This document shows positions 29,500-50,258 of a stretch of 64,000 nucleotides of DNA, in pieces. Under the pieces are notes generated by a model. The model worked only from the letters and a program-made list of their open reading frames with translations. It searched no databases and was not told where the DNA came from. The translations under genes were made by a program, and so were the position numbers. How positions within the stretch are numbered: position 1 is the stretch's first letter; each line of letters begins with the position of its first letter. The stretch is from an uncultured Alphaproteobacteria bacterium (GTDB lineage Bacteria; Pseudomonadota; Alphaproteobacteria; CAAHEQ01; UBA3637), in the NCBI GenBank assembly GCA_905236245.1, contig CAJOPC010000004.1, positions 6,079-70,078 on the forward strand, in the 5' to 3' direction.

Positions 29500-30150
29500 T
29501 CAATTTAATACGCACCCGAACAATACCGCGAAAAAGTGCATAACTGTTCCTGCCAACACCATAAAGTGCCAAATAGCGTGCGTATATTTTTTACTTTTCA
29601 TCACATAAAATATAATGCCCAAAGTATAACAAAGGCCACCTAAAATTAAAAAAGTTAAAGCGATACTGGGCAGTTCTTGAAACACCCGTTTAGAGGCAAA
29701 AATGACCAACCATCCCATTAATAAATAAAGGCCTATCGACCACAATTTTGTCCCCGAACCGCTTAAGGTTAGTTTTAAGATCGTTCCTAAAATAGCTAAT
29801 CCCCAAATAATACCAAAAATTGTCCAACCTAATGCTCCATGCAAAGTCACCAATGTAAAAGGAGTATAAGTTCCCGCAATCAAATAATAAATTGCAATAT
29901 GATCAAATTTTTTTAAAACCTTTTTAGCATGTTCATTTGGCACAGCATGATATAAAGTTGATGCCGAATATAACAACACCATGCTCACCCCAAAAATAAC
30001 TGTGGAAACAACAGTCCAAGCATTTCCCTTAATGGCAGATAAAGCCGCCAAAATGACCAAAGCGGCGATAGATAAAATGATTCCTATTCCGTGGATAACA
30101 CAATGCCAAATTTCCTCACCGATTGTATAAGAACGCTTTACCGTATCCAT
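29500..30150 (-). CDS. Hemolysin III family (PAQR) membrane protein
   Basis: Seven TM helices with conserved His residues (HCVIHGIG...HAIWH...H). Confidence 0.75.
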   Translation of the reverse strand: MDTVKRSYTIGEEIWHCVIHGIGIILSIAALVILAALSAIKGNAWTVVSTVIFGVSMVLLYSASTLYHAVPNEHAKKVLKKFDHIAIYYLIAGTYTPFTLVTLHGALGWTIFGIIWGLAILGTILKLTLSGSGTKLWSIGLYLLMGWLVIFASKRVFQELPSIALTFLILGGLCYTLGIIFYVMKSKKYTHAIWHFMVLAGTVMHFFAVLFGCVLN

Positions 30151-30160
30151 CGCCCCCCCC

Positions 30161-31546
30161 TTAATATTGCACTTTATAAGTCAACCTTGCTTCCCCTTTT
30201 GCTGGAACAGATACTGCCCACATTATAGTATTAGAAGTTACACGCTCTCCTTTTTGACTTTGATCTAACAACTTAAAATCATCTGGGAAACCGAGTGTCA
30301 ATTCAATCTCAGCATTTTCATCCGATCCGTTTTTAAACACAACTTCATAAGAAGCTATCTGCGTTTTTTCAGAAATTTTATTCAAGGCGGTTCGTTTCAT
30401 ATCCGCGGTCAAATTAAATGAAGTTCCCAATCTTAAACGAACATTTTCTCCATCTGCAATATGTTGGATCCGATCTTCACCAATAAATTGCATATTCTCC
30501 TTTGAATCTTCCTTATACATACGAATTGTGCCCTTTGGCAAAGGTTTTCCCAAGCCATTTTGTGGTGTATTTAAGAAAGATACATAAATATCCGGCTTCA
30601 TGTTTTTTCTTTCAGTTTGATGCACACTGAAAGGACGATTGAGCTCATAAGTTTTTTTCACGCCAACATCCGCCACAGATAACAAAGCTACCTGTTTTGT
30701 TTGATTAGATAACAAGTCGGTTTTATGCGGCACCGTATAAATATAGAAATCAGTCAACGCTTCTGCTTCCATACCATCAGCGACCATATCCAAAGCATTA
30801 GCAGATTTAGCCAACAACATCCGTGGCCGCTCCATATACTCGGATACAACATTCACATCCCCCGCGACCAATTGTAATAAAGCTTGTTTATAATCGGCAC
30901 CGGAATTATTTGTTAATGTGACAAAACCATTCAAATTCATTTTGGTTTCATCGGCATTTAACTTTGCCACATAATCCGCTTTCCAAGAAAGTCCTGTGGT
31001 CAAATAATCTAACTCTAACGAATCAGCACCTGCCTTTTTGGACACCAAAGTAATTGCCAAAGTTGGTTGCGCTCGCAAATTTTCTGGAACTGAATCAAAA
31101 ATCACTCGTCCCGGATAATCCGTTTCAATTTTATTTCCAATTTTCAAGACAGGATGCCCGTCATTAAAAGCTAAAATTTCGGCTTTTTCTTGATGCGTTT
31201 TTCCCGTTGCTGGATCAATATACTCAACAGTCACTTGTCGACCAACAGATTTTTGTAACAAAGCATTCCTTGTCAACAAATCAAAATTAAAATTTTGCTC
31301 ACGGGTCGAAATTCCATCCCCTTTTAGCAAGGCCGTCTGAGGCATCATGTTTGCCGAAACCCCACGGAAAGCCAATTCATTAATACCGGCAGTTAAATCA
31401 ACTTGGCGTTTATCTTTAATCAAAGCCCGATTTTCATTATAAATAGTCACATTCATACCCGTCTGAGCGGATACCGGAACCGTTGTTTCCGACGCCATTG
31501 CAATACTAGACAATCCTAAAACTAATAAACTTAACACTGTTTTCAT
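30161..31546 (-). CDS. Secreted DUF4139-like (MuiA-family) protein
   Basis: Signal peptide. The opening VTIYNENRALIKDKRQVDLTAGINELAFRGVS resembles DUF4139 proteins. This is a tentative family call. Confidence 0.45.
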   Translation of the reverse strand: MKTVLSLLVLGLSSIAMASETTVPVSAQTGMNVTIYNENRALIKDKRQVDLTAGINELAFRGVSANMMPQTALLKGDGISTREQNFNFDLLTRNALLQKSVGRQVTVEYIDPATGKTHQEKAEILAFNDGHPVLKIGNKIETDYPGRVIFDSVPENLRAQPTLAITLVSKKAGADSLELDYLTTGLSWKADYVAKLNADETKMNLNGFVTLTNNSGADYKQALLQLVAGDVNVVSEYMERPRMLLAKSANALDMVADGMEAEALTDFYIYTVPHKTDLLSNQTKQVALLSVADVGVKKTYELNRPFSVHQTERKNMKPDIYVSFLNTPQNGLGKPLPKGTIRMYKEDSKENMQFIGEDRIQHIADGENVRLRLGTSFNLTADMKRTALNKISEKTQIASYEVVFKNGSDENAEIELTLGFPDDFKLLDQSQKGERVTSNTIMWAVSVPAKGEARLTYKVQY

Positions 31547-38349: not shown

Positions 38350-39189
38350 TTACCTACACAATGGTGTAATAAATGGTCCATTTGATTTAGGACGAGAAAA
38401 ATTACCCACATCACTGTTATTAGCCGACACATTAAACATTGCACAGGAATTATCAGCTGAGTAATTAGAGCTGGTCCAAAAACTAACTGGTCCAAAATTT
38501 TGCCTCAGAGCAATAATCACAGCACTATAATGAGAATATACGAAATCTTCATGCTCTGGCAAAATAGTTTTATTCTCACATTGATAACAATTTTCCCAAT
38601 AATTATACCAAGGCCCTGCACTTTGACCAGATACACAACAAGAAGAGTATATACCGGAACCACCAGTAACTAGTGTTGAAGTATCACTCTGATAACAATT
38701 AAACTCGGCCACATCTATTAAAGATTTACCCTGTGCTTTGCACCAATTATCCGCAGACCACCAACTCATCCGTTCATATTTGTTAATGACTTCCCCTAAT
38801 CCTTCTATATTAACAGGGCCAAGCACATCTCCGATAGCGGTACAGGTTCCTGTATTTGGTTGTTCACAATTTGATCCATCCAAATTACAGTATTCGCCCT
38901 CATTACAATCCTCATTACTCTTACAACCATCAAAAATTGTTTCCGTACCACATGGATCTTCTTTGTATGACAAATACACATTACCATTGGCACAAACCGT
39001 ACATTTTCCAAATCTATCCTCTAACACGCCAGCGGCACAAGCGCCACCTTTTCCATTGATACGCACATCAACAGAGTCCACTCCTACTCCGCGATATACG
39101 GAGCTCTTACGACTTTTCCCGCCACCACCAAAGGCCAAAACACTTGTTGCCATTAAAAGTGCTGTTCCAAATAATAATATTTTATTCAT
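38350..39189 (-). CDS. Secreted cysteine-rich protein, family member P2 (conserved leader plus CTLD-like C-terminal domain)
   Basis: MNKILLFGTALLMATSVLAFGGGGKSRKSSVYRGVGVDS leader. The first ~105 aa match P3 at all but one position, after which the sequences diverge. WWSADNWCKAQGKSLIDVAEF motif. AAGGAG RBS. Confidence 0.8.
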   Translation of the reverse strand: MNKILLFGTALLMATSVLAFGGGGKSRKSSVYRGVGVDSVDVRINGKGGACAAGVLEDRFGKCTVCANGNVYLSYKEDPCGTETIFDGCKSNEDCNEGEYCNLDGSNCEQPNTGTCTAIGDVLGPVNIEGLGEVINKYERMSWWSADNWCKAQGKSLIDVAEFNCYQSDTSTLVTGGSGIYSSCCVSGQSAGPWYNYWENCYQCENKTILPEHEDFVYSHYSAVIIALRQNFGPVSFWTSSNYSADNSCAMFNVSANNSDVGNFSRPKSNGPFITPLCR

Positions 39190-39311: not shown

Positions 39312-40034
39312 TTACTTACACAATGCAGGAGCATTCATGCCTTGTCCACCCTGTCGGCCATCTCTTGGGCCAATATATTTATCAAAAGTGCGCACATAAA
39401 CACTCTTACAGATATCTATACCATCATTTACCCAAAACCAATTATAACTTATCTTATCCAAAACTGGTTGCCAATCTAAATGACATCCAGAACTTTCTTG
39501 ACACGTTTCACCATTGATAATGACACCACTAACACTGGAAGGATCAATACCAATATCTTCTAAGCCAATCAACTGTTTTCCCCTAGCAGCACACCAATTT
39601 TCAGCAGCCCAATAGGAAAAAGAATCTTGGCTAATTATACAACCATCATCAAAAGTTGTTTTAATATCATTCTCATTTAATGGAGAACACACGCCTGTAT
39701 CTGGCTGTTCACAATTACTACCTGTCAAATTGCAATATTCATTTTCTCCACATTGTACATTACTTACACAACCTGTTACACTTGTTTCCGTACCACATGG
39801 ATCTTCTTCGTATGACAAATACACATTACCATTGGCACAAACCGTACATTTTCCAAATCTATCCTCTAACACACCAGCAGCACAAGCACCACCTTTTCCA
39901 TTAATATGCACATCAACAGAGTCCACTCCTACTCCGCGATATACGGAGCTCTTACGACTTTTCCCACCTCCACCAAAGGCCAAAACACTTGTTGCCATTA
40001 AAAGCGCTGTTCCAAATAATAATACTTTGTTCAT
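39312..40034 (-). CDS. Secreted cysteine-rich protein, family member P3 (tandem paralog of P2)
   Basis: Leader and first ~105 aa match P2 at all but one position (K/V at the fourth residue). Divergent C-terminus still containing YWAAENWCAARGKQLIGL. Confidence 0.8.
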   Translation of the reverse strand: MNKVLLFGTALLMATSVLAFGGGGKSRKSSVYRGVGVDSVDVHINGKGGACAAGVLEDRFGKCTVCANGNVYLSYEEDPCGTETSVTGCVSNVQCGENEYCNLTGSNCEQPDTGVCSPLNENDIKTTFDDGCIISQDSFSYWAAENWCAARGKQLIGLEDIGIDPSSVSGVIINGETCQESSGCHLDWQPVLDKISYNWFWVNDGIDICKSVYVRTFDKYIGPRDGRQGGQGMNAPALCK

Positions 40035-40070
40035 AAAAGCTCCTTTTTTAAAAATAAAACTCGCCTTGAT

Positions 40071-40231
40071 GAGAGGCGGTTGGAAGCTCGAAAACTATCA
40101 GATAGAATAGTGCGACATATTTCGGTGTTAACACCTTTATTTTGTCACCTTCCAACCACGTGATTGGAATTTTTCGTCCTTGGACGCTATCTGAAAGGCT
40201 TTCGAGACCTTAGATCGGGAATCACCCAATC
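40071..40231 (-). other. About 160-bp structured MITE-like insert in the P3 5'UTR (absent from the otherwise identical P2 leader)
   Basis: Flanked by sequence shared with the P2 leader. It contains a perfect 12-bp palindrome GGTGTTAACACC, a near-palindrome TTCCAACCACGTGATTGGAA, and outer inverted arms CTCGAAA...CAGATAG / CTATCTG...TTTCGAG. Confidence 0.55.
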
Positions 40232-40238
40232 CAAAGTC

Positions 40239-43998: not shown

Positions 43999-44715
43999 TC
44001 ATTGATTACATGTGTCAGGAGACCAACTACCCCCAGGGGTCACTTCACCAGCACAACATCCCCAAGACCAACTTCCACCATCACACTCCGGCCCATGTCG
44101 AGATAAACAATATGGGGTTGTATCTTTTGGACAACAAATATAGCCTATACACACATTGTTTTCATCGTACTTGTAACAAACGGGTTCAGTTCCCGGAGTG
44201 GTACAACATAAATCTGATCCATCTAGCCCTTTACCTTCAAATACTTCACCATTACAACATGTATAATTATCTCCATATGAAAAACGACCACTCAAATAAG
44301 GCTTTCCTCCACTGGGGCAACACAAAGACCAGTTATAAACACAATTTCCATCAGCATCACGAGTAAAACAAAAAAGGGTGCCGGTGCAACACATTGAAGC
44401 CCACGACCCTACTTGGCGAGAAGCCGATTCTCCTGCTGGGCAACAAAAATTCAATTCTTCATTACAACACTGGTATTCGCCTGATTCGTTCTGACTACAT
44501 ACATTATCACCATAACAACAACCTTTACCGCACTTAACACCATCTGAGCACGTCTCCTCTGAATCACTATCTTTTCCACTAAAATGCACACCGATAGAAT
44601 CAACGCCTACGCCACGATAAACGGAAGATTTGCGACTCTTTCCTCCTCCGCCGCCAAAGGCTAAAACAGAGGTTGCTACCAAAATTGCCATTCCAAATAA
44701 TAATACCTTTTTCAT
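43999..44715 (-). CDS. Secreted cysteine-rich protein, family member P4 (conserved leader plus tandem CC-x-G repeat C-terminal domain)
   Basis: MKKVLLFGMAILVATSVLAFGGGGGKSRKSSVYRGVGVDSIGVHF leader. The C-terminus contains many CC pairs (CCYGDN, CCNEE, CCPAGE, CCTGT, CCPSGG, CCNGE, CCTTPG, CCPKD, CCAGE). AGGAG RBS. It lies 18 nt downstream of the preceding gene. Confidence 0.8.
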   Translation of the reverse strand: MKKVLLFGMAILVATSVLAFGGGGGKSRKSSVYRGVGVDSIGVHFSGKDSDSEETCSDGVKCGKGCCYGDNVCSQNESGEYQCCNEELNFCCPAGESASRQVGSWASMCCTGTLFCFTRDADGNCVYNWSLCCPSGGKPYLSGRFSYGDNYTCCNGEVFEGKGLDGSDLCCTTPGTEPVCYKYDENNVCIGYICCPKDTTPYCLSRHGPECDGGSWSWGCCAGEVTPGGSWSPDTCNQ

Positions 44716-44733: not shown

Positions 44734-45156
44734 TTAATGGTGATGATGATGGTGCCTGATTGTCCGCAAATAATCCTGTCTTTCACGATACGAATCTTGA
44801 TAAGTGGATTCATCACGTTCCATTTCGGCATGCTCTTGAATACATGTCCATAACGCCTCTTTTGAAATAGCGCTATCTTTAAAGTAATTCTCACAAGTCG
44901 TGTTTAACTTATCAATTTTTTGCTCAATTCTATCTGCCAATTCTTTGCTAACGGAACCTGACATATGATACAAACGCCTAAATAATTTTTCATAAAACAA
45001 ATGGCACTTCATATTCTGTTCTGAACCAGGCTGAAAACCCAACACTTCTTCACATTGACGATTCAAAGCTTCTTGATAACGTGCCTCACCAATTCGATCA
45101 GAGTCTGCCATCGGGTTAAGTAACAAAGAAGTTAATAAAATACTTCCCCAAAACAC
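44734..45156 (-). CDS. Small secreted protein with a natural C-terminal hexahistidine tail (putative metal-binding), co-transcribed with P4
   Basis: GTG start with an AAGGAGG RBS. Hydrophobic N-terminus. Ends ...TIRHHHHHH-stop. The likely promoter TTGCAT-17-TATTAT is upstream. Confidence 0.6.
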   Translation of the reverse strand: MFWGSILLTSLLLNPMADSDRIGEARYQEALNRQCEEVLGFQPGSEQNMKCHLFYEKLFRRLYHMSGSVSKELADRIEQKIDKLNTTCENYFKDSAISKEALWTCIQEHAEMERDESTYQDSYRERQDYLRTIRHHHHHH

Positions 45157-47702: not shown

Positions 47703-47822
47703 TTTTGTCCTTTCTTTTGTTAAAATAATTGTGTCCATTGTTTTAATCTTTTTTTAAAAAAATTGCAAGAGGAATTTATTTGAAGCCTTAACAAAAATCC
47801 CCCGACAAATCGGGGGAAAATA

Positions 47823-48737
47823 TTACAGGACACACGTATCGGGTTCATTTTTTGATCCTGGGGTAACTGTTCCAGGACAACATCTCCAAGAGGCACCACC
47901 ACAACATCCCTCATATCGGGAGACACAATAAGGCGTTTCTCCTTCACTACAACATGCTGCTTGATAATAGTAATTTTGTTGAATAAAAAACGATGTTACA
48001 CAATCTGCCTTGCCACATGCATATCCATATCCTCTACATTTTTCTCCGTTGGTTTCATATTCTGCACAATATCCTTTTTCTCCCTCTGCACAACAAATAT
48101 GTACAGTACAATTACCTGCATCATCATACTCCGCACAAACTGGTTTTTTCCCATCATAACAGCACAAATCAGCCCCATCCACGCCTTTCTCTTTATAAAC
48201 TTTTCCTCCATTAGAACAACACATATATTGATCTCCATAAGAAAATTTACCATTTATATAAGGCTCTCCATCACAACATAAATACTCTTTAGTACCATCA
48301 TCACGTTCATAAGGGCCATATACTTTCCCTCCAGTTGGGCAACAAGAAGTAGACGTACAATTATCTTCTGCATCTTTATAACTGCAAAACAATTTCCCAG
48401 CACAGCAAGTCGTCTCCCAATATCCTCTGAAGATACGATATGCTCCACCACTTATTGGGCAACAATGATTTAATTCTTCACTGCAGCACTGATACTCGCC
48501 AGACTCATTCTGCTTGCACACATTATCACCATAACAACAACCGCTGCCACATTTGATACCATCAGAACAGGTCTCTTTTCCTGAATCGTCATCTTTTCCA
48601 TTAAAATGTACACCGATAGAATCAATACCTGTGCCGCGGTAGACAGATGCCTTTCGACTTTTTCCGCCCCCACCACCAAAGGCAAAAACCGATGTTGCCA
48701 CCAAAATTGCCGTTCCGAATAATAAAACTTTTTTCAT
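47823..48737 (-). CDS. Secreted cysteine-rich protein, family member P5 (conserved leader plus CC-x-G repeat domain, P4-like)
   Basis: MKKVLLFGTAILVATSVFAFGGGGGKSRKASVYRGTGIDSIGVHFNGKDDDSGKETCSDGIKCGSGCCYGDNVC parallels P4. The C-terminus is longer and repeat-rich. Confidence 0.8.
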   Translation of the reverse strand: MKKVLLFGTAILVATSVFAFGGGGGKSRKASVYRGTGIDSIGVHFNGKDDDSGKETCSDGIKCGSGCCYGDNVCKQNESGEYQCCSEELNHCCPISGGAYRIFRGYWETTCCAGKLFCSYKDAEDNCTSTSCCPTGGKVYGPYERDDGTKEYLCCDGEPYINGKFSYGDQYMCCSNGGKVYKEKGVDGADLCCYDGKKPVCAEYDDAGNCTVHICCAEGEKGYCAEYETNGEKCRGYGYACGKADCVTSFFIQQNYYYQAACCSEGETPYCVSRYEGCCGGASWRCCPGTVTPGSKNEPDTCVL

Positions 48738-48832
48738 CTTTTATCCTTTCTTTATTAAATTACAAAACACCCCTGCCTTACGGCACGGTTTAATTCATCG
48801 GCGTCGCCGATTTTGCTCGGCAAGCTTTTAAT

Positions 48833-48854
48833 TGTGTGTGTGTGTGTGTGTGTG
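48833..48854. repeat. (TG)11 dinucleotide microsatellite, about 100 bp upstream of the P5 start codon
   Basis: Perfect TG x 11, visible directly in the sequence. Confidence 0.9.
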
Positions 48855-48965
48855 TACAAAATAAGGGCTATCGCCTTATTCACGTTCGCTATTTTTTTTA
48901 AAATCATAGAATCATTCCTACACATGGCTTCATTTTGACATATACTTCAATGAATTGTCAAGGGG

Positions 48966-49000
48966 AAAACAAAAAAATACTCCCGATTGTGCGGGAGTAT
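48966..49000 (-). terminator. Terminator of the FadL-family gene
   Basis: ATACTCCCGcacaatCGGGAGTAT hairpin plus a 7-T run on the minus strand. Confidence 0.7.
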
Positions 49001-49019
49001 TTTCGATTTTTACCCGATA

Positions 49020-50258
49020 TTAAAAATGATACTGGGCGCTTAAACCAAGGCTGTTGAGTTGCGTATGATATGTTCCGCGAATTTCGGTCTGTCCCGTTGT
49101 GTTAGCTTTACTAGCCACACGAGCTTTGGACCAAAACATATGGAAATAGCTGGCATCGATTTGCCAATTACCTCTTTTATAACTGGCACCAATACTGGCA
49201 ATCCAGCGGTTTGCGTCTGGCACACGCGCGGTACGATGCTTTGGATCTTTTACCGCACCTTGATCATAAGCCAAACCAGTCCGGAAGGTCAAATTTTTGC
49301 AATAATGATAATCGACGCCACCAGAAACTGTCCAAGTATTCCGCCAATTTTCATCAACTTGAGATGGAGTTCTCCCAGGGCCTAATTGAGCCAAAGCCGT
49401 TGAATCAATAGACAACAAATTGAAACGGCTCCAACGTGTCCAACGTGCCATAGCAGAAAGACCAAACTTGCCAACTTCTTGATAGGCTGTTAATTGAATG
49501 TGCTCTGGATCTACCAACTTTGTACTACTATAACCTTCTTTACGCCCCACTGCGGGATTTGGGTGTTGAAAGTGGTGTTTACCTTTAATATTTTGCACAA
49601 TCGGAGAACGATAAGCCACACCGAAACGTGCTGTCTTTGTTGGCTCAACCATAATACCAGCATTCCAACCATGTCCCCAACCATCAGCATTCATGTCGGA
49701 TTTACCGCCAGCAGCAGAATCCAATGTATTTGTTAAACGTGCTTGCATGCGTTCCAAAATAAAGCCACCACCAATACTCAACCATTGCAATGGTTTCCAT
49801 GCCAAAGATGGATGGATATCAATTGTTTCAATCTCACTCACCAAAGAATGTGTACGACCAAACCAAGATTTATTATAATATGTGCCCAATCCAAACGGTA
49901 CATACAATCCTAAACCTAAACGCCAATTTTCGGAAAGCGCATATTGTCCGAAAGCATGCGGAATCAATTTAAAGTTACGCAATTTACCTTTGGAAGTCGC
50001 TGTACCATCACTCAATGAACCACCTTCCACATTGGAATGAATGTCCATTCCCATAGCACCCAATTGCATACCCGACTTTCTCAAAGTCATACCGGCAGGG
50101 TTAAAAGCCACTGCAGAATAATCGTCACCAACGATACCTGCTCCGGCAAAAGCACGACCGGCATTTGTGACAGAGTATTCCTGTAATTGATAACCACCGG
50201 CCCAAACACTGGTGGAAGCCATTAATAATACTGCTAATAATGTTAATTTACTTTTCAT
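49020..50258 (-). CDS. FadL/OmpP1/TodX family outer-membrane hydrophobic-compound transporter
   Basis: Signal peptide. The mature N-terminus AGGYQLQEYSVTNAGRAFAGAG is typical of FadL. C-terminal aromatic residue (..YHF). Confidence 0.8.
   Translation of the reverse strand: MKSKLTLLAVLLMASTSVWAGGYQLQEYSVTNAGRAFAGAGIVGDDYSAVAFNPAGMTLRKSGMQLGAMGMDIHSNVEGGSLSDGTATSKGKLRNFKLIPHAFGQYALSENWRLGLGLYVPFGLGTYYNKSWFGRTHSLVSEIETIDIHPSLAWKPLQWLSIGGGFILERMQARLTNTLDSAAGGKSDMNADGWGHGWNAGIMVEPTKTARFGVAYRSPIVQNIKGKHHFQHPNPAVGRKEGYSSTKLVDPEHIQLTAYQEVGKFGLSAMARWTRWSRFNLLSIDSTALAQLGPGRTPSQVDENWRNTWTVSGGVDYHYCKNLTFRTGLAYDQGAVKDPKHRTARVPDANRWIASIGASYKRGNWQIDASYFHMFWSKARVASKANTTGQTEIRGTYHTQLNSLGLSAQYHF

Follow-up and report, generated by a model that had tools for sequence, protein, structure and literature searches.

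A perfect dinucleotide repeat of 23 nt (11.5 TG units) lies upstream of the gene P5 in the window, which is the whole 64-kb stretch of DNA from an uncultured alphaproteobacterium analysed in this study. The repeat is most likely located in the transcribed 5′ leader of P5, at about +71 to +93 of a predicted leader of ~188 nt, and not in a promoter spacer. We regard it as a candidate contingency locus. Our tentative preference is that it is a functional contingency element acting from the P5 leader, and this reading is almost tied with one in which the repeat is neutral.

Sequence and rarity of the repeat

The repeat was read from the sequence and with Tandem Repeats Finder as a perfect TG tract at 48833-48855 of the + strand. 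A sequence-only reading of the window had described a perfect 22-bp TG tract at 48833-48854. The tract is real and perfect, but it is one base longer than described. It is the only dinucleotide run of at least 10 nt in the 64-kb window, and the next longest are three runs of 8 nt, which bears out the earlier remark that no other dinucleotide tract of this length was visible. Under a first-order Markov model of the window, the expected number of dinucleotide runs of at least 22 nt in 64 kb is about 2.5 × 10−8, which marks the tract as the outcome of replication slippage rather than chance.

As in contingency loci, the repeat is perfect and long enough for frequent slipped-strand mispairing. The slipped-strand premise of the sequence-only reading holds at this length, at which frequent mispairing is expected. 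In E. coli, (CA)n tracts are a textbook substrate of slippage, which mismatch repair keeps in check (Levinson and Gutman 1987, as cited in PMC4139959). By analogy with the general behaviour of (CA)n tracts, the P5 tract would be hypermutable. No mismatch-repair genes were found among the large ORFs scanned in the window, a result that carries no information on the tract.

A second dinucleotide run of at least 10 nt was not found in ~170 kb of other loci from the source organism and its relatives, which argues against a general proliferation of microsatellites. The lineage does not accumulate such repeats, so the P5 tract is harder to dismiss as drift.

A homopolymer was also observed elsewhere in the window. 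A G8 run on the − strand (30153-30160) lies in the 10-nt gap between the stop codon of the gene at 30161-31546 and the ATG of the gene at 29500-30150 (…TAAggggggggcgATG). It is the sole G/C run of at least 8 nt in the window, which has a GC content of 39%. This run may serve as the RBS of the gene at 29500-30150, and slippage there is conceivable.

Organization of the FadL-P5 spacer

All the genes neighbouring the tract are carried on the − strand. The features of the region are listed below in the direction of transcription.

49020-50258, − strand: upstream gene, FadL/Toluene_X outer-membrane transporter of 412 aa (PF03349)
48973-49004, − strand: intrinsic terminator of FadL, 13-bp stem followed by a T run, −16.8 kcal/mol
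48932-48961, − strand: promoter P1, best candidate for P5, TTGACA-18 nt-CAAAAT, found by promoter scan
48755-48907, − strand: upstream ORF (uORF) of 50 codons, called as a gene in the ENA assembly
48860-48880, − strand: hairpin H1 (AATAAGG / CCTTATT, −7.2 kcal/mol) followed by TTTTGT, directly 5′ of the tract
48831-48859, − strand: P2, weak hypothetical promoter across the tract, TTGTAC-17 nt-CACAAT, found by hexamer search
48833-48855, − strand: dinucleotide microsatellite, (AC)11A on the coding strand and (TG)11.5 on the + strand
48801-48825, − strand: leader hairpin H2, −12.7 kcal/mol, overlapping the palindrome ATCGGCGaCGCCGAT
48797-48811, P5 leader: perfect 15-bp palindrome ATCGGCGaCGCCGAT, between the tract and the RBS
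48763-48788, − strand: leader hairpin H3, −11.8 kcal/mol, followed by UGUUUUGU, attenuator-like
48744-48748, − strand: RBS of P5, AAGGA
47823-48737, − strand: P5 coding sequence, 304 aa, with a signal peptide, a conserved N-terminal motif and a cysteine-rich beta-hairpin body
47793-47816, − strand: intrinsic terminator of P5, −15.2 kcal/mol, after which the PGK promoter comes next

The distance from the tract to the P5 ATG (48737) is 95 nt, in agreement with the earlier estimate of about 100 bp. The tract was also correctly placed between the FadL terminator (49004-48973) and the AAGGA of the P5 RBS (48748-48744), and it is non-coding with respect to P5. The palindrome ATCGGCGaCGCCGAT could be a protein operator or just part of hairpin H2.

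Promoter candidates

Scanning of the FadL-P5 spacer (282 nt) for promoters gave only two candidates, P1 and P2. P1 matches the consensus at 10 of 12 positions and has an extended −10 element, with TG two bases before the −10 hexamer. It begins 12 nt past the FadL terminator and ends 76 nt upstream of the tract. P1 is the sole strong sigma-70-like promoter in the spacer, and sites with at least 10/12 matches occur about once per 2460 nt in the local DNA. Promoters of other family members resemble it. The paralogue P0018 has TTGACA-18-AAAAAT with a TG, beginning 13 nt past a terminator, which is the same geometry and placement as in P1. The paralogue P0005 has TTGACA-18-TAAACT, with the same −35 hexamer and 18-nt geometry, and its promoter shares 15 identical nt (TTTCCCCTTGACAAT) with that of P5. 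Two paralogues in the window carry TTGCTA-17-TATAAT immediately past terminators.

The E. coli-type consensus hexamers of P1 predict a transcription start site (TSS) of P5 near 48925. Because P1, the only strong promoter, ends 76 nt upstream of the tract, the tract is predicted to lie within the transcribed leader.

P2 matches 7 of 12 positions (3/6 in the −35 hexamer) and was not reported by the consensus scan. The local DNA has one hexamer pair of this class in about every 360 nt. The hypothetical P2 spacer measures 2n − 5 bp, where n is the number of repeat units, i.e., 17 bp at n = 11, 15 bp at n = 10, and 19 bp at n = 12. It falls within 16-18 bp at the observed n = 11 and outside this range at the neighbouring values. 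That the flanks of the tract complete two hexamers at exactly 17 bp is a coincidence worth noting. Transcripts from P1 should read through H1, since its stability is −7.2 kcal/mol compared with −15 to −17 kcal/mol for the real terminators of this region. The sequence-only reading had proposed a hif-like switch of promoter geometry. This proposal is not favoured by the layout of the spacer, with the strong P1 76 nt upstream and only the weak P2 across the tract.

Leader folding and the upstream ORF

The predicted fold of the P5 leader is more stable than that of shuffled sequences (z = −2.3), and the tract is predicted to be a single-stranded linker between hairpins. H3 and its U run occupy the position that is held by a terminator in four paralogue leaders, which suggests control by attenuation.

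The uORF (48907-48755) has an AGGA 8 nt ahead of its ATG and would translate the tract as THTHTHT. The position of its stop codon varies with n at a period of three. At n = 8, 11 or 14, the stop lies 17 nt before the P5 ATG, past H2 and H3. At n = 9 or 12, it lies 52 nt before the P5 ATG, and at n = 10 or 13, it lies 90 nt before it. An open frame of this size in such a leader is estimated to arise by chance in ~5-10% of cases, which is mildly unlikely. Among 5.8 billion proteins, only the exact uORF sequence was found and no homologues.

The P5 leader had no match in the window at the gathering threshold of Rfam 15, and a search of 48650-49050 at E up to 10 gave only chance-level matches. The Rfam family sRNA-Xcc1 does not match the P5 leader.

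The conserved leader RNA of other family members

A structured leader of ~190 nt was found in four members of the P5 family.

40050-40232 of the window, − strand: leader of a family member
L020 5806-5987: leader of a family member
L024 9796-9987: leader of a family member
L024 18356-18495, − strand: leader of a family member

This leader has two inner hairpins and ends in a terminator directly before the RBS. An nhmmer search with the leader motif returned exactly these four copies. All positions of the outer 9-bp helix (GGYUGGAMG/CKUCCARYC) pair in the four sequences (100%), and three of the pairs are compensatory. The 5′ strand of this helix can instead pair with an upstream copy of its partner, and such alternative pairing is typical of the expression platforms of riboswitches or attenuators. 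In Rfam, the window copy had a sub-threshold match to sRNA-Xcc1 (35 bits, gathering score 53), and the L024 copies had no match. The leader has the look of a new cis-regulatory RNA that serves this family, and it is a candidate riboswitch or attenuator. It may merit more attention than the microsatellite.

Because the AATAAGG hairpin is shared with this RNA, the P5 leader was considered as a possible decayed copy of the paralogue leader, in which the tract replaced a hairpin. This idea was rejected for want of evidence; nhmmer finds the four copies and not the P5 leader.

P5 and its protein family

P5 consists of a signal peptide, a conserved N-terminal motif of ~50 aa (…VATSVLAFGGGGGKSRKSSVYRGxGVDSIGVHF…) and a variable body rich in CC pairs. 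Five family paralogues were found among the ~55 genes of the window, and the tract lies upstream of one of them.

~349-1233, − strand: family paralogue
38350-39189, − strand: family paralogue
39312-40034, − strand: family paralogue
43999-44715, − strand: family paralogue
47823-48737, − strand: family paralogue P5

These paralogues share the signal peptide and the N-terminal motif of ~50 aa (AFGGGGKSRKSSVYRGxGVDSIGVHF), which are followed by unrelated, variable, cysteine-rich bodies. Among 5.8 billion proteins, 20 clusters matched the family, which is, to judge from this search, tiny and lineage-specific. In the GTDB species representatives, a set that leaves out the source genome itself, the family was found in three unclassified alphaproteobacterial MAGs, of which none carried a simple sequence repeat (SSR). 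UBA3650 proved to be an unclassified alphaproteobacterium. A study of the ruminant rumen recovered bins of RF32 and related Alphaproteobacteria (PMC7820578).

No match to P5 was found in Pfam, in PDB sequences or by fold. Its AlphaFold model is a stack of beta-hairpins with a mean pLDDT of 74, and the pLDDT exceeds 90 over most of residues 80-220 and 260-304. The family to which P5 belongs appears to be a new one, made up of secreted proteins rich in cysteine. It had been likened to a variable surface protein. Secretion (predicted), richness in cysteine, membership of a multigene family and accessory status are supported, whereas surface exposure and antigenic variability would be conjecture.

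Two other observations were made on the paralogues. The segment 48694-48748 (− strand), which covers the RBS and coding start of P5, is identical over 55 nt to the start of the paralogue P0003 (L016 1-55), and the contig carrying P0003 ends exactly at this common 55-mer. Recent conversion or duplication of the 5′-end may explain this identity, along with a repeat that the assembly failed to resolve. Another copy of the P5 leader may lie upstream of P0003. An ORF of 140 aa (44734-45156, − strand) without family assignment has a natural hexahistidine tail (…IRHHHHHH, then the stop codon) and stops 18 nt before the paralogue P4. Because only 18 nt separate them, P4 seems to have no promoter of its own and to be co-transcribed with this ORF.

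The P5 cassette and its relatives

In the related MAG JAZRDB (L015 3870-4000), FadL is directly followed by PGK, and P5 is absent. The relatedness of this MAG was established by its PGK, which falls in the same 90%-identity protein cluster. This arrangement indicates that the promoter, leader, P5 and terminator form a self-contained accessory cassette. The cassette covers ~1.18 kb between FadL and PGK (47793-48972) and is bounded by P1 and by the terminator of P5 itself. The accessory status of P5 counts among the points in support of the sequence-only reading. In a second relative, a type IV pilin-like gene precedes PGK. No P5 orthologue for a comparison of tract length was found at the PGK- or FadL-anchored loci of relatives. 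A contig with a FadL variant (L014) ends at the terminator.

In a second organism carrying the family, two adjacent genes are split in one assembly (L024 6465-8892) and intact in two others (L025 4903-7352 and L026 6443-8892). The pieces measure 78 + 413 aa for a VWA/TPR (BatB-like) gene that is 488 aa long when intact, and 267 + 49 aa for a VWA gene of 328 aa. The splits may reflect true frameshift variation or faulty assembly. One of the two genes contains a (CAAAAA)3 repeat, but away from the split site.

Tract length in public assemblies and repeats in the family

Searches for the exact sequences of P5, FadL and the 50-aa uORF all led to one set of four contigs (ENA and NCBI). All four encode the identical uORF spanning the tract, so the tract length is identical in four of four P5 contigs. 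The contigs probably derive from one sample or project. This invariance is weak evidence because the contigs are probably from one rumen sample and consensus assembly hides minority alleles. Variants of the uORF peptide, in-frame or frameshifted, were not found among 5.8 billion proteins. In the JGI metagenomes, a search for both flanks of the tract with a variable gap of 4-34 nt gave 0 matches, and 0 relatives of the P5 protein were found. Neither these metagenomes nor the GTDB representatives contained a further strain with the locus. A comparison of tract length across strains had been suggested earlier, and the public assemblies searched yielded no variant, with four contigs that probably represent one sample.

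Look-ups of the paralogues P0014 and P0018 placed the organism in the ENA assemblies ERZ28573572, ERZ1667814 and ERZ27234820 and in the Logan run ERR3525317. The source contig is scaffold_9 of ERZ28573572 (GLEN20-2, SAMEA5961694). P5 is missing from the Logan assembly of ERR3525317, which might have pointed to a bubble due to heterogeneity. This absence is uninterpretable, as P0003 (with the 55-nt identical 5′-end), FadL and PGK are missing as well.

No SSR was found upstream of ~16 other family members in this genome and its relatives. The ~170 kb of family loci contained no dinucleotide run of at least 10 nt, and no homopolymer of at least 9 nt upstream of a family gene. The sequence-only reading had held that a gene of this type is where such a switch would be expected. 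This did not extend to the rest of the family (SSR upstream in 0 of ~16 other members), and repeat-based switching is thus not a family strategy.

Comparison with known repeat-controlled genes

In Haemophilus influenzae, (TA)9-11 forms the −35/−10 spacer of the two overlapping divergent promoters of hifA and hifB (van Ham 1993; reviewed in PMC2651432). The two tracts are alike as perfect dinucleotide repeats with some 10 units, located about 100-225 bp ahead of the gene, which in hif encodes a surface structure, and in the proposed changes by 2-bp units. Unlike in hif, the strong promoter of P5 stands clear of the tract by 76 nt, and the only hexamers that span the tract are at background level. 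The P5 tract also differs in having no divergent gene and a CA instead of a TA unit, and no length polymorphism was observed in the four contigs.

The Vmm protein of Mycoplasma mycoides is regulated transcriptionally by dinucleotide insertions or deletions in a (TA)n repeat inside its promoter (Persson 2002, as described in PMC2628566). As in Vmm and in Vmc of M. capricolum, which has a (TA)n promoter switch too, a dinucleotide repeat precedes a gene for a small variable secreted or surface protein in a family of similar genes. Several members of the Vmc family in M. capricolum carry repeats, whereas only one of more than 16 P5-family members does, and its repeat is probably in a transcribed region.

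The closest match to the predicted position of the P5 tract is found in Moraxella catarrhalis, where the (AGAT)6-23 repeat of uspA2 and the poly-G tract of uspA1 are 5′ untranslated repeats that set the expression level (Attia and Hansen 2006; Lafontaine 2001; as described in PMC4679880). In uspA1 and uspA2, as is predicted for P5, the repeat lies between the TSS and the start codon. Unlike the P5 tract, the uspA1 and uspA2 repeats are a homopolymer and a tetranucleotide repeat, and their strain-to-strain variation and effect on expression have been demonstrated.

In attenuation of the trp/pheL type, the position of the ribosome on a leader ORF decides whether a hairpin with a U run forms before the structural gene. 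The P5 leader likewise has a short ORF (the uORF) and a hairpin with a U run just before the gene. Unlike trp and pheL, which sense charged tRNA through the codon content of the leader ORF, P5 would hypothetically be controlled by a heritable microsatellite frameshift.

Mycobacterium leprae has neutral polymorphic dinucleotide repeats, such as (AC)8, (GT)9 and (TA)18, which are used for typing. The P5 tract is similarly a long perfect dinucleotide repeat, of a unit that is also among them (AC/GT), in non-coding bacterial DNA without known function. The genome of M. leprae is decaying and has many such loci, whereas the P5 tract is the only one in the ~230 kb examined.

Proposed mechanism and alternative explanations

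In the reading that we propose, the slippage-generated (CA)11.5 tract is transcribed as part of the 5′ leader of P5, whose monocistronic cassette was inserted recently, and lies outside the core promoter. Frequent length changes of ±2 nt would then affect how much P5 is made, at a step after transcription initiation. Of the possible routes, the one through the 50-codon uORF, which is presumed to be translated, is the most concrete. At n = 8, 11 or 14, ribosomes would cross H2 and H3 and stop 17 nt before the P5 ATG, and read-through and coupling would be favoured. In the other two frames, the uORF would stop 52 or 90 nt upstream and leave the hairpins free to form. In its full form, the tract would be a heritable frame-setter in a leader peptide that suppresses the H3 attenuator and/or provides coupling, giving a three-phase ON/low/OFF switch; we consider this form a long shot. 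More simply, a longer or shorter tract would change how stable the leader RNA is or how its parts are spaced, as in uspA2. Among validated contingency repeats, the majority are situated within coding sequences or in promoter spacers, not in leaders, and we know of no heritable microsatellite frameshift within a leader ORF that controls attenuation. Any novelty of the tract would be at most that of another member of the known contingency-locus class, although the uORF-frame route would differ from the known ones. None of the class features tested here spoke against candidacy; the two decisive ones are length polymorphism and an effect on expression.

The alternative that comes nearly level with this leader-acting reading is that the tract is neutral, a CA run that replication slippage expanded where the long leader is dispensable; it may well vary in length with no consequence for P5 expression. 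The uniform tract length in every available contig and the lack of a variant peptide in the database speak for neutrality, as does the absence of an SSR upstream of any other family member. The position of the tract points the same way, since it lies outside the best promoter and the P5 coding sequence, in a predicted unstructured linker between hairpins, and the P2 hexamers that span it are no better than background. However, other long perfect SSRs are absent from ~230 kb of the DNA of this lineage, which shows no tendency to accumulate them. By established reasoning on contingency loci, 11.5 uninterrupted units are not expected to last without selection or a very recent expansion, and the tract precedes an accessory, secreted member of a multigene family, which is a typical place of functional repeats.

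A spacer switch of the hif/Vmm type is rather unlikely. Here, P2 would use the tract as its spacer, with 17 bp (ON) at n = 11 and 15 or 19 bp (OFF) at n = 10 or 12, and P2 would be shielded from P1 by H1 and the T run behind it. With TTGT and AT, the flanks do complete the hexamers at a spacing that one repeat unit moves out of the 16-18 bp range, H1 with its TTTTGT tail stands directly upstream of P2, and dinucleotide repeats within promoters are established for hifA/hifB, (TA)9-11 (PMC2651432), and for Vmm (PMC2628566), as far as these sources describe them. Against this, P2 has a poor −35 hexamer (3/6; 7/12 in all), was missed by the consensus scan and belongs to a class expected about once per 360 nt, while the much stronger, family-conserved P1 lies upstream. 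This model was ranked below the leader model because P2 is at background level and P1 transcripts should pass H1, a weak terminator. It is highly improbable that the repeat or its length is an artefact of assembly or sequencing and absent from the organism itself. The DNA does come from a metagenome assembly, and the contig of the nearby P0003 breaks at the 55-nt 5′-end that is identical to that of P5. At 23 nt, however, the tract does not reach the length of assembler k-mers, and its flanks are unique. Four contigs show it unchanged, and the paralogues of the organism occur in several ENA assemblies and NCBI. TG repeats are, to our knowledge, not a known Illumina artefact.

Significance

If neutral, the tract would merely be a convenient marker for strain typing. 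If the uORF-frame reading is true, contingency regulation would operate via leader-peptide attenuation, and not via promoter spacing or frameshifting of the structural gene. The best-known examples of repeat-driven contingency come from mucosal pathogens, among them Haemophilus, Neisseria, Moraxella and Mycoplasma. If the tract does switch P5, it would be a first hint of such regulation in uncultured rumen/gut Alphaproteobacteria, and the locus would provide a simple, read-countable marker of within-host population dynamics for the source organism.
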